Source: Promethearchaeota archaeon (GTDB lineage Archaea > Asgardarchaeota > Lokiarchaeia > Sigyniarchaeales > SOKP01). Taken from it: 64,000 bases of DNA. The position numbers and the translations under genes are program-made. The stretch is from positions 50,663 through 114,662 of the forward strand of contig JBHLPW010000004.1 in NCBI GenBank assembly GCA_048939015.1, in the 5' to 3' direction. Shown one piece after another: positions 3,045-48,537 of the stretch. The notes beneath the pieces are model-generated. The model ran no database searches. It worked only from the letters and a program-made list of their open reading frames with translations, and was not told the DNA's origin. How positions within the stretch are numbered: the stretch's first letter is position 1; each line of letters opens with the position of its first letter.

Positions 3045-3509
3045 ATTAAGATTACTCAAGCAACAGGAGAAGATATTCCTGAGATTGTAGAACTTTGGAA
3101 GGAACTTGCTGATCATCATTCAAAATTAGATTCTTTTTTCACAAGGAGGAAGGATGGACACATCAACTTTAAACCCTTTATATCTGATTTGATTGAATCT
3201 GATGATGCAAAGATATTTGTAGCATTCGAGGATGATCAAATCATAGGGTATACAGTTCCTAAGATCGATCAATATTCACCAGTTTATCTTTTAGAAAAGC
3301 ATGGTTCTATTTATGATATGTTTGTAAGTTTGGAGCATAGAAGAAGAGGGATTGGAAAAAAATTATGGGAGGAAGCTCTTAGATGGTTCAAGGGATTAGG
3401 ATTAGAAAGAGTAGAATTGAGTATTGTACCGACTAATCCTGAATCTTCATCTTTCTGGAAAAAACAAGGATTTTCTGATTATACGCATAGATTATATATC
3501 AAAATTTGA
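3045..3509 (+). CDS. GNAT family N-acetyltransferase (probable ATT start)
   Basis: Acetyl-CoA motif V..EHRRRGIGKKL and C-terminal FWKKQGF. Frame extends upstream to IKITQATGEDIPEIVELWKEL, bounded by in-frame TAG at 3033. Confidence 0.85.
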   Translation: MKITQATGEDIPEIVELWKELADHHSKLDSFFTRRKDGHINFKPFISDLIESDDAKIFVAFEDDQIIGYTVPKIDQYSPVYLLEKHGSIYDMFVSLEHRRRGIGKKLWEEALRWFKGLGLERVELSIVPTNPESSSFWKKQGFSDYTHRLYIKI

Positions 3510-3526
3510 AGATTCCATAATTCTTA

Positions 3527-5350
3527 TCATAAATTTAGAAATCTGAGCTTTTCAGCATTCGGCACTCCAGTTAAATAATCCCAATCACGATATTCATAGA
3601 AAAATTTTTTTAATTTATTAAAATTGGGAGATTTTCCTGCTGATCCTCCACTTTCGAATGGATTCAATAAAATTTGAGGTATTCTATCATCTGAAGGTGT
3701 TAATCCCATTTTTATATTAAACATTCTTTTCATATTAGCTATCCTTTCCCCATATAGCTTTACTTCTTCGAGTCTAAAGTTTAAACCTGTAGCATATTGT
3801 ATAATATCGGCATTATGAGAAGGTAAAGGATTACAAAAAGAACACATTACCATTGAACTATACAAAGCTCTATAATCCATTAATAATGAGCAACATTCTG
3901 CCATTTCCATGTCATCCTTATAAGTGTCAATTTGTTTAATGCCCAACTCCTCTAAAGGAATACCCATTAATACATAATAAGCATCACAAGCATTATGAGA
4001 AGGACCACGGGGGCCTATTCCGTAGGCAATTGACATTCCATAGTTCGCGCGGCTATCATGGTATGTAACTTCTAAATTATCAACAGTAGCAATTTCCTCC
4101 TTATCAATATTAAATTTGTCTGCAAAGTAATTTGAACCTTCGGAAAGAATACTACCAAGTCCTTCTCTTCTAGCTATCTTTTCTATTAATTGATCCACTT
4201 TATCTAATTCACTCCAACCAAGAGTTAATCCATCAATATCTTCTGAATTTATTCTTCCTAAGTTATGATGATAAATTAAGCTTGCAATTACACCACTTGT
4301 ACTAATTGTATCAATTCCGAAGTCATCACACCTTTTATTGAAATAAGCAATAGATTCTAAATCATCATTTAAGATCAAACTACCAAACCCACAAATAGTT
4401 TCATATTCTGGACCTCTTATTTGTTCAGTTTTGTATTTTCCATCTTTGATTTCTATAATCCTTCCACATCCTATTACACATGAATGACAAAATGCCTGTT
4501 TCACTAGGATAGTTTCAGCCATTGTTACCCCTGATATATTTCTTGCTTTTTCCCATTTAGATCTCGTATGATATTTTACAGGTAATTCACCTGTAACATT
4601 ATACATGTCGAGAGCGGCAGCAGTACCATACATTCCCAACATTTGGCTCGCAACTGAGGATTTTACGTAATCCCTTGCATTTTTTATTGCTACGTCCAAT
4701 TTTTCCTTATTCGCGACATTAAGGCTTAAATTAGAACCCTTTACAATTATAGCTTTTAATTTTTTTGAACCAAATATAGCACCCAAGCCAGTTCTTCCAG
4801 CTGCTCTTTGTTCAGAAATTATATTTGCAAATCTAACTAGGTTTTCCCCAGCTATTCCTATACAAGCAACCTTTGCTTTATTATCTCCAAAGACTTCTTT
4901 AAGTTTTTTAGTTGTATAGGATGTATCCTTTCCCCAAATAAACTCTGCATCACTAATTTGAATATTTTGATCATTTATTTCAATATAGACGGGTTTTTCT
5001 GAAGCACCAACTATTTCTATCCCATCATATCCTGCTTTCTTCACTTCAGCTCCAAACCAACTCCCACAATTTGATTCACCCCAGATTCCTGTTAATGGAG
5101 ATTTAGAGCATACGACCCATCTTCCAGTATTTGGAGCAAAAGTTCCGTTAAGAGGACCTGTCATTATCATTAAAATATTTTCTGGAGAAAGTGGATCCGT
5201 TTCTAGTTCTAACTTATCATATAGATAACGACAAGCATATCCTGCTCCCCCTAAGAAGTTTTTCGCAATAGTCTCCTCTAAAGGGGAAGTAGAAATTTCT
5301 TTATTAGTAAGATCAATTTTCAATATCTTTCCTCTAAACGAGTATAATAT
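3527..5350 (-). CDS. aor: Aldehyde:ferredoxin oxidoreductase family protein (probable ATA start)
   Basis: KSPLTG, ESNCG, AAGRTGLGA.FGSKKLKA, CHSCVIGC, GPEYET and DDFGIDTIS motifs. Upstream in-frame ILYSFRGKILKIDLT matches the family N-terminus. Confidence 0.92.
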   Translation of the reverse strand: MLYSFRGKILKIDLTNKEISTSPLEETIAKNFLGGAGYACRYLYDKLELETDPLSPENILMIMTGPLNGTFAPNTGRWVVCSKSPLTGIWGESNCGSWFGAEVKKAGYDGIEIVGASEKPVYIEINDQNIQISDAEFIWGKDTSYTTKKLKEVFGDNKAKVACIGIAGENLVRFANIISEQRAAGRTGLGAIFGSKKLKAIIVKGSNLSLNVANKEKLDVAIKNARDYVKSSVASQMLGMYGTAAALDMYNVTGELPVKYHTRSKWEKARNISGVTMAETILVKQAFCHSCVIGCGRIIEIKDGKYKTEQIRGPEYETICGFGSLILNDDLESIAYFNKRCDDFGIDTISTSGVIASLIYHHNLGRINSEDIDGLTLGWSELDKVDQLIEKIARREGLGSILSEGSNYFADKFNIDKEEIATVDNLEVTYHDSRANYGMSIAYGIGPRGPSHNACDAYYVLMGIPLEELGIKQIDTYKDDMEMAECCSLLMDYRALYSSMVMCSFCNPLPSHNADIIQYATGLNFRLEEVKLYGERIANMKRMFNIKMGLTPSDDRIPQILLNPFESGGSAGKSPNFNKLKKFFYEYRDWDYLTGVPNAEKLRFLNL

Positions 5351-5511
5351 TTTGGTACACCACTTTGTTCTGATTAAAAATCTATTTGGTAATTATGTGT
5401 TTATTTTTTATTTATTTTACTTTTTTATTATTTTTACATTTGAAATATGATTTGTAGAATTTATGAATAATTAAAACAACATTTTTAAACCTTGAAAGTT
5501 GAATAGTAAAT

Positions 5512-46850: not shown

Positions 46851-46955
46851 TTTTGTCTCACGTATAATTTTTTAATATATTCTTTACCCTCTGAATAATA
46901 GTAAGATTTCAAATATTTCAAAATATTATTTGAGTAATAAAAGTTTTACTATGAT

Positions 46956-47756
46956 TTAATAGATATTTATTTCAATTTTATTATCACTGATTATCTCATT
47001 AAAGATCGAAGCGATTTCTCTTTTTTTTTCATCATATATTGCATGTACAAAATATTCGGCGGGAATCCTCGCAGTTGAGTAAATTTGTATAATATTTGGT
47101 TTTATCTTTTTTAAAGCATGAGCTAAATCATAAATATTTTTTGAATTAGCATTTGGTTTAAAATTTTCTTTATATGAATCAAAAATTAAAATCTGGATAG
47201 CTAATTTATTCTCTCTAGGTATTTCCTTTTTCAATTCTGTTAAAGAGTTTATTATTGTTTCTATTTTCGGAGTTTCATGATGAGGACGATTGGTTCTTTT
47301 AAAATCTTCTTCATTTGCAGCATCTAGTTTTGCTAAAATTAGATCAAACTTTTTTACTCGGTCTCTAATTTTTTTATCATGTAATGTACTTGAATTTGTA
47401 AATAAAGTGAGAATCGGTTTTTCATCTTGCCATTTTAATTCACTCCTAACATCAGCTGCAATTTCGAAGAAATCTAATAGATTTTCATTTAAAGTAGGCT
47501 CTCCATTATAACCAAATGTAATTGAGTTTAAATGTGGAACATAGGATAAAATAGATCTTAATTCTTTTCTAAAATTTGAGGAAGGTGGTAAATTTATTCT
47601 ATAATTTGGAGAAACTAGATTTTGTTTCTTTGTTAAACCAATTTCACAATAAACACAGTTATATGTACATAGTTTATAATTAGCTAAAACATTGACACCA
47701 AGAGAGAGTCCCAAGCGTCTTGATCGAAAAGGACCGTATGTATATTCTCTGGGCAT
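46956..47756 (-). CDS. Radical SAM protein
   Basis: SRRLGLSLG, CTYNCVYC, GEPTL, KLDA. Confidence 0.9.
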   Translation of the reverse strand: MPREYTYGPFRSRRLGLSLGVNVLANYKLCTYNCVYCEIGLTKKQNLVSPNYRINLPPSSNFRKELRSILSYVPHLNSITFGYNGEPTLNENLLDFFEIAADVRSELKWQDEKPILTLFTNSSTLHDKKIRDRVKKFDLILAKLDAANEEDFKRTNRPHHETPKIETIINSLTELKKEIPRENKLAIQILIFDSYKENFKPNANSKNIYDLAHALKKIKPNIIQIYSTARIPAEYFVHAIYDEKKREIASIFNEIISDNKIEINIY

Positions 47757-47775
47757 TGTTATTTAATTGTTGAAG

Positions 47776-48537
47776 TTATATAGAATTATCAATAAAATCC
47801 ATTATTGCTTTATTTACTTCCCCAGGTTTTTCTAACATTACACCATGACCGGATTTATCTATAATGTGAAGAACTGAGTTTGGAATTTTATCATGAAAAA
47901 ATTTTGAATATTTTACAGGAGTAAGTTGATCATACTTACCACATATGATTAAACAAGGTACATCAATTGAACTTGTCTTATCCAAAGTATCAAAGGTATC
48001 ACAGATTTTAAAATCATTATAGGTCACCTCTGGATCTATTTGAGCTATCTCCAAAATCGCGTCTTCAATAACATCTTTCGAAGTTTTCCTGTAAAACAAT
48101 CCAACTTTCAGATTTTCCAAAAAAACTTGATAATCAGGTTTTATAGAGTTAAAAATAACTTGACTCACTCGCATTCTTCCGCCTGTAGCACATAAAATAA
48201 GTGCAGAGACAGCCTTTGGGTATTTAAAGTAAAATTCTTGGATTACAACTCCACCTAAAGAATGACCACCTAAAATTAGTTTTTCAACTTTTATTGAGTC
48301 AACAAATTTCTTAACAACATCAACATATAAGTCTAGGGATAATTCTGGAAATTTACTAGATTTATTATGTGAAGGTAAATCAATTGCAATAATATTATAA
48401 TCTATGTTTAAATAAAATTGATTTTCCCAGATATTTGAGTTGCCTCCTGAGCCATGTATTAATATAAGAGTATTTTTAGAACTATTATCTTTAATCTGAT
48501 AAAATATTTGCTTTCCAAAATATTCAAAATATGGAAT
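47776..48537 (-). CDS. Alpha/beta hydrolase (probable ATT start; the ORF track shows only the C-terminal half)
   Basis: Continuous frame IPYFEYFGKQIFY...LIHGSGG...AIDLP...GHSLGG...GKYD...SGH; in-frame TGA six codons before the ATT. Confidence 0.88.
   Translation of the reverse strand: MPYFEYFGKQIFYQIKDNSSKNTLILIHGSGGNSNIWENQFYLNIDYNIIAIDLPSHNKSSKFPELSLDLYVDVVKKFVDSIKVEKLILGGHSLGGVVIQEFYFKYPKAVSALILCATGGRMRVSQVIFNSIKPDYQVFLENLKVGLFYRKTSKDVIEDAILEIAQIDPEVTYNDFKICDTFDTLDKTSSIDVPCLIICGKYDQLTPVKYSKFFHDKIPNSVLHIIDKSGHGVMLEKPGEVNKAIMDFIDNSI

Follow-up and report, generated by a model that had tools for sequence, protein, structure and literature searches.

Probable ATT, ATA and ATC start codons in four genes of a Lokiarchaeial genome and in a share of genes across its family

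The stretch of DNA analysed here, hereafter the window, comprises 64,000 nucleotides (nt) of contig C40 (GenBank JBHLPW010000004.1, positions 50,663 to 114,662) of a Promethearchaeota archaeon of the order Sigyniarchaeales. Its guanine + cytosine (GC) content is 30%, and the genome to which it belongs, designated G000, is a 4.86-Mb draft metagenome-assembled genome in 125 contigs (GCA_048939015.1). Identical or near-identical public proteins carry names that assign the genome to Lokiarchaeota/Promethearchaeota, and the public sequencing runs listed as containing this DNA comprise seven DNA runs from sediment or soil and no RNA run. Four genes in the window, encoding a GNAT acetyltransferase, an aldehyde:ferredoxin oxidoreductase (AOR), a cupin, and an alpha/beta hydrolase, appear to start at an isoleucine codon (ATT, ATA or ATC, collectively ATH) instead of one of the canonical codons ATG, GTG and TTG. 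These genes and the Shine-Dalgarno (SD) motifs in front of them are as follows.

3045-3509, plus strand: GNAT acetyltransferase gene, start ATT at 3045-3047
3034-3037, plus strand: weak SD-like AGTG, read from the sequence, its GTG 7 nt before ATT 3045
3527-5350, minus strand: AOR gene, start ATA at 5350-5348
5358-5363, minus strand: SD GTGGTG, 7 nt before the ATA; GGTG and the 7-nt distance are kept in the ATH-carrying orthologs
19936-20271, minus strand: cupin gene, start ATC at 20271-20269
20277-20282, minus strand: SD GGTGAG, 5 nt before the ATC; the TGA within it is the in-frame stop that closes the gene's frame upstream
47776-48537, minus strand: alpha/beta hydrolase gene, start ATT at 48537-48535
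48545-48548, minus strand: SD GGTG, 7 nt before the ATT; neither the GGTG nor the 7-nt distance varies across 12 genomes

An initial annotation of this DNA had proposed ATT, ATA and ATC starts for these four genes, with a GGTG-type SD at the usual spacing in three of them and a weak AGTG in front of the GNAT gene. The sequence, the reading frames and the stops at all four sites are as it described, and so are the SD motifs. In each gene, there is an in-frame stop upstream, and the Ile codon stands where the N terminus of the protein family begins. A (G)GTG is found 7 nt upstream of the Ile codon at 4/4 sites, in the form of AGTG only for the GNAT gene. At the other three it is a GGTG at exactly 7 nt, which has a chance of ~0.0012 per site for one fixed offset at 30% GC. 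Scans of the window with Rfam and for tRNA returned no matches.

The hydrolase frame has a TAA 6 codons upstream of the ATT, and its first canonical codon is an ATG as far as 121 codons downstream, falling after both HGSGG and GHSLG. As these motifs precede the first ATG and the Abhydrolase_1 domain spans residues 23-238 (Pfam), the earlier argument that the extension holds the HG and GHSLG motifs, and so must be translated, is borne out; judged from these motifs, the extension is indispensable for the hydrolase. In the GNAT gene, the frame reads TAG (3033-3035), TGT TTT TCT, and ATT 3045, and the first canonical codon is TTG 3189, 48 codons downstream. Acetyltransf_4 spans residues 7-144 (Pfam), and by its predicted fold this protein, too, cannot do without the extension. 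The cupin has its first ATG 21 codons downstream of the ATC, and Cupin_2 spans residues 31-101 (Pfam), so that the extension is dispensable for the domain itself. In the AOR gene, an in-frame stop lies 15 codons upstream of the ATA and the first canonical codon is TTG 5323. Because this TTG, only 9 codons downstream, is a viable start, AOR is judged the weakest of the four cases on sequence alone and needs orthologs; AFOR_N begins at residue 7 (Pfam), which makes the extension marginal for this protein.

Orthologs of each gene were taken from as many as 25 congeneric genomes, all of them different species and separate assemblies. For the hydrolase, 12/12 congeners have GGTG, seven variable bases, and ATT (nine genomes) or ATA (three genomes), followed by CCA TAY TTY. 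The upstream DNA is unrelated between genomes, and the distance from the upstream stop to the start ranges between 5 and 30 codons. In 10/12 orthologs, no in-frame canonical codon occurs between that stop and a point at least 40 codons downstream of the start. G005 and G011 are the exceptions: the former carries an ATG two codons upstream, separated from the GGTG by 1 nt only, and the latter a TTG in unconserved sequence, 26 codons upstream. At the GNAT start codon, same-genus genomes have ATT (three), ATA (one) or ATG (four), with GTGAT or AAGGTG at the SD position; two of these genomes share the identical context aaggtgttctaa, which is followed by ATA in one and by ATG in the other. Cupin orthologs in 15 congeneric genomes have ATT or ATC behind GGTGA, and G023 has ATG at the same codon together with an SD degraded to cGTGA; the peptide IKKVHE.DF is conserved from the start codon onward. 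For AOR, the same codon is ATH in seven genomes (ATA here, ATT in four orthologs and ATC in two) and ATG in two. In 5 of the 7 ATH-carrying genomes the first canonical codon lies 46-60 codons downstream, and TTG 5323 is not conserved in the orthologs.

An exchange of ATG and ATH at the same codon, which the initial annotation had suggested looking for, was therefore seen for GNAT, cupin and AOR; for the hydrolase it was not, since 0/12 orthologs have ATG and all have ATT or ATA. The two explanations that had been named as potentially fatal, errors in the consensus sequence and untranslated pseudogenes, are ruled out because of this exchange and because the same non-ATG codons recur across many independent same-genus assemblies. 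In addition, the genes are intact and conserved at the protein level, with synonymous changes.

Two further readings of these sites were considered and rejected. The in-frame stop close to the start is not a special signal, because whenever GGTGA precedes the start by 6 nt, simple geometry brings the TGA within it into frame. Nor does an alternative genetic code, with AUA reassigned or a stop read through, fit this genome, in which ATH are abundant internal Ile codons (ATA 3.6%, ATT 5.5% and ATC 1.4% of internal codon use). Against read-through of a stop, the hydrolase orthologs show a variable position of the upstream stop and no conservation of the upstream sequence.

The genome-wide analysis was based on 4,072 coding open frames in G000, each with an upstream stop. 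Upstream of the first canonical codon, GGTG in front of an in-frame ATH peaks at a spacer of 7 nt, with 42 cases, compared with ~9 for the other spacers in that phase. A second, smaller ATH excess is seen at spacer 8, and control codon groups show no peak. About two-thirds of the ATH excess is found at exactly 7 nt, whereas ATG starts are spread over 5-10 nt. We also performed an SD-anchored count, in which in-frame codons 6-8 nt after GGTG were scored in the start zone and in a far-spacing control, with the following results.

ATG: 96 in the start zone, 18 in the far-spacing control
ATA: 71 in the start zone, 27 in the control
ATT: 66 in the start zone, 35 in the control
TTG: 53 in the start zone, 5 in the control
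ATC: 17 in the start zone, 10 in the control
GTG: 16 in the start zone, 4 in the control

In this count, which had been put forward as a check on the four starts, ATT and ATA, and more weakly ATC, stand out over all control codons. Many of the SD-anchored ATH candidates restore textbook N termini, including small-GTPase P-loops, Rossmann GxGxxG motifs, the beta-1 strand of receiver domains, and those of ribosomal proteins.

Start codon usage was estimated by an expectation-maximization (EM) start model, which combines the likelihood of coding versus non-coding codons with the SD class and lets all 61 sense codons compete from a flat start. The final SD model omits the A of GGTGA, a model with that base having inflated the scores where TGA is in frame. 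At convergence, the shares were ATG 73%, TTG 8.9%, ATT 5.5%, GTG 4.1%, ATA 3.2% and ATC 0.5%, and anagram controls of equal composition (TAT, TTA, AAT, ACT and CAT) received ~0. An SD-blind version gave 3.5% for ATT and 1.4% for ATA. An SD of at least 5 nt was found on 8% of these SD-blind ATH calls, in comparison with a background of 2.2% and with 8.2% for ATG starts, and it peaks at the right spacing, the corresponding AAA calls being flat. The ATH share is flat over gene-length classes, and the signal therefore does not come from junk open reading frames. Among 159 confident ATG starts of a same-genus genome (400 kb), the paired G000 codon is ATG in 114 and ATH in 5, a tally of small numbers in which N-terminal misalignment is frequent. 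Taken together, these estimates suggest that ATH starts are used by about 5-10% of G000 genes, at a rate that varies among relatives. In the window, ~56 genes were counted by the start model, of which the four ATH starts represent ~7% (4/56), in agreement with the genome-wide estimate and supporting the earlier suggestion of relaxed start selection in about 4 of 60 genes.

Several other features of start codon usage emerged from the same models. TTG is the second commonest start in G000 (~9%). On confident SD-aware calls an SD accompanies 76% of TTG, 65% of GTG and 28% of ATG starts, the confidence itself depending on the SD, and about three-quarters of all G000 starts are without an SD of at least 4 nt. 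Small start weights are given to ACG (~5 genes) and CTG (~15 genes). In the window, the gene at 25428-25994 (plus strand) has an ambiguous start, either GTG 25428 or ATA 25440 behind GTGGTG, and the model gives 0.32 to the ATA.

The same pipeline was applied to 400-kb samples of related genomes, with the following shares of ATH starts.

G000, this genome, 30% GC: ATH 10.4%
G006, same genus, 30% GC: ATH 2.6%
G032, sister family f2, 31% GC: ATH 6.7%
G038, sister family f2, 30% GC: ATH 5.8%
G078, a more distant family, 42% GC: ATH 2.6%
G033, family f4 of the same order, 53% GC: ATH about 2%, at noise level
G066, another family of the phylum, 30% GC: ATH 0.0%

The ATH habit is strongest in the family of G000, weaker in the sister family, and undetected in the G066 control. 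AT-richness alone was rejected as a cause, because G066 gives 0% ATH at the same 30% GC. Core genes outside the window are also involved.

C77, 4360-4839: uL15 gene of G000, start ATT
C72, 18585-19217: ATP synthase subunit D gene of G000, start ATA
C27, 8581-8898 (locus L067, 1426-1743), plus strand: aIF1/SUI1 gene of G000, start ATT

For uL15, ATT is found only in this genus and ATG elsewhere. ATP synthase subunit D has ATA or ATT in genera g1, g13 and g14, and ATG, TTG or GTG in other families. The aIF1 gene, encoding an initiation factor, has ATT in genera g1, g14 and g12 (13/14 loci of family f1), GTG in g13, and ATG, GTG or TTG in the other families sampled. Its CPxC...CxC zinc knuckle is encoded upstream of the first canonical codon, a TTG 21 codons downstream of the ATT. 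Family-specific substitutions of aIF1 were listed as well, relative to an outgroup dominated by one family. The pattern across these genes gives a picture of repeated, lineage-specific drift from ATG to ATH in a tolerant family.

How such starts might be decoded depends on the initiator tRNA. Its gene in G000 is on contig C27 (~31260-31400, minus strand), outside the window, and displays A1:U72, the GGG/CCC anticodon stem and a CAT anticodon. The gene is interrupted by two introns, one following the anticodon loop CTCATAA and the other within the T-loop, and the counterpart in G032 has an intron in the D-loop. The G000 gene was missed by ARAGORN and was located by similarity to the G032 gene; the Rfam tRNA model missed both.

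On this evidence, we consider it highly probable that the four genes are intact and translated from AUU, AUA and AUC, as part of a lineage-wide habit of this Lokiarchaeial family and not as a defect. The likeliest and simplest mechanism would be near-cognate pairing with Met-tRNAi, because the anticodon of the sole initiator tRNA identified is the normal CAU. In brief, the GGUG(A) SD would pair with the 3' end of 16S rRNA and, with its last G nearly always 7 nt before the start, would bring the near-cognate codon into the P site. The ordinary initiator Met-tRNA would be accepted there despite a mismatch at the third base, and ATH-initiated proteins would have Met as their first residue. The tight 7-nt spacing of ATH starts, as opposed to the broad spacing of ATG starts, fits an SD that holds the codon in the P site. 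With start-codon proofreading relaxed, ATG could drift repeatedly to ATH under AT mutation pressure, and this drift would extend to core genes such as those for uL15, ATP synthase subunit D and aIF1. The factor aIF1, which in Sulfolobus discriminates against AUU (PMC4705826), may itself have a role in the relaxed selection.

Several observations weigh against this interpretation. The control codon AAA takes 2.6-4.9% in the start models, which defines their noise floor, and the ATH rate is model-dependent, with ~375 genes (9.2%) by summed posteriors and 197 (4.8%) by maximum a posteriori calls. The low rate in G006 comes from a genome of the same genus and the same GC content. In G000 itself, shorter products are possible for two of the four genes, from the ATG 21 codons downstream and before the Pfam domain for the cupin, and from the TTG 9 codons downstream for AOR. 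Finally, the search of G000 for a second initiator-like tRNA gene, which found none, was made in a draft in which only ~20 tRNAs were detected by ARAGORN and Rfam.

This small number of detectable tRNA genes is one of the points in favour of a different decoding of genuine ATH starts, by a dedicated device such as a modified C34, a second initiator-like tRNA, or initiation with Ile. Each of the three ATH codons is in use, and the genes that start with ATH include the highly expressed uL15, atpD and aIF1 genes, which suggests efficient and not marginal initiation. Animal mitochondria provide an established precedent, in which 5-formylcytidine at position 34 (f5C34) lets tRNA-Met read AUA. The sole initiator-type tRNA gene found is fully canonical at the DNA level, where RNA modifications are invisible, and we regard a dedicated device as improbable. 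Far less credible is a start at the next downstream ATG, GTG or TTG, the upstream frame being an untranslated leader or the genes decaying pseudogenes. It would agree with the short forms called by public pipelines, with the position of the cupin ATG, which still precedes the Pfam cupin domain, and with the AOR TTG 9 codons on, which the SD-aware model prefers (0.62). However, it would leave the hydrolase without its oxyanion HG motif and its GHSLG nucleophile, and the GNAT protein without 48 residues of its fold. It is also at odds with a protein-level conservation, marked by synonymous changes, that begins at exactly the ATH codon and collapses upstream, with the orthologs that have ATG at the same codon, and with the lack of conservation of the AOR TTG.

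That the ATH codons are ATG codons altered by errors in the consensus or the assembly, or that the mRNA is edited back to AUG, is hardly conceivable, even for a draft metagenome-assembled genome in 125 contigs. The same ATH codons are present in 12-16 separate assemblies with 70-90% protein identity and with interchange of ATT, ATA and ATC, and errors would not be confined to start codons 7 nt behind an SD. For editing, three distinct base changes would be required, all of them yielding G. Translation from the ATH codons themselves remains the reading we favour.

A further extension of that reading is speculative, and we think it unlikely as a whole. Start stringency would have been reset in this family, with aIF1 translated from AUU in an infC-like feedback, and several hundred AUH genes (encoding ribosomal proteins, ATP synthase subunits and small GTPases, among others) would form a translational regulon that tracks the level of aIF1. 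If this were true, stringent AUG selection would not yet have been fixed in at least one lineage near the archaeal ancestor of eukaryotes.

In the textbook view, archaeal translation starts at AUG, GUG or UUG, and AUU is rejected by the factor aIF1/eIF1. AUH starts at several percent of genes, including that of aIF1 itself, in a lineage next to the eukaryotic stem would hence offer a comparative handle on the evolution of start stringency, and cultured Lokiarchaea now exist. There are also practical consequences. Standard gene finders allow only ATG, GTG and TTG, because of which ~1 gene in 10-20 would be truncated or lost in these genomes. The public call for the hydrolase is a 132-amino acid fragment lacking the catalytic serine, from the downstream ATG (window 47779-48174, minus strand), and that for the cupin is a 90-amino acid form, also from the downstream ATG (window 19939-20208, minus strand). 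The cluster of the short cupin form contains 93 proteins under the names of several Asgard phyla, mostly of ~90 amino acids (80-92 among those listed). Where P-loops and Rossmann motifs are cut short in small GTPases and enzymes of Asgard archaea, homology searches and structure predictions can be expected to be distorted, and so can counts of eukaryotic signature proteins.

The type of codon is known from other systems; the scale and the lineage are new. In bacteria, AUG accounts for 80.1%, GUG for 11.6% and UUG for 7.8% of starts, and non-canonical codons for 0.004-0.024% of those annotated, with two AUU genes in Escherichia coli (PMC5499595). The infC gene, with AUU or AUC as its start, is under autoregulation by IF3, and frequent AUU and AUC starts occur in Mycoplasma gallisepticum (PMC5499595). 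Non-canonical starts in Staphylococcus aureus sit behind extended SD motifs (PMC13009471). The reviews of archaeal initiation consulted list AUG, GUG and UUG only (PMC7531240; PMC4705826), and our literature searches turned up no account of AUH starts in Asgard archaea. The bacterial near-cognate starts (infC and pcnB in E. coli, and those of S. aureus) resemble the present ones in having an Ile-type codon at SD distance that differs from AUG in the third base. They are read by the normal initiator tRNA, and the same decoding is likely here. The differences lie in extent and in the proofreader, since bacteria have a handful of such genes and IF3, whereas here ~5-10% of genes are concerned, ribosomal and ATP synthase genes included, and the factor is the archaeal, eIF1-like aIF1. 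The ATT start of aIF1 resembles the AUU autoregulation of infC, and also that of eIF1 through poor context, in that a proofreader gene starts at a codon that the factor disfavours, the feedback being putative in our case. The AUU start of infC coexists with strict selection elsewhere, and such a start alone therefore does not explain the wide use of ATH here.

Translation tables 2, 5 and 4 of NCBI allow ATH initiation, and table 11 lists ATT, ATC and ATA as possible starts. As in G000, all three AUH starts are frequent in the AT-rich genomes of animal mitochondria and Mycoplasma. In mitochondria, AUA has been reassigned to Met and the tRNA-Met is a modified one. In contrast, ATH stay ordinary internal Ile codons here, in a genome that is large and free-living. 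With the archaea of the textbooks, this family would share the SD-led mRNAs, the set of initiation factors and the canonical tRNAi, and it is in their start codons, given as AUG, GUG and UUG, that those archaea differ from it.

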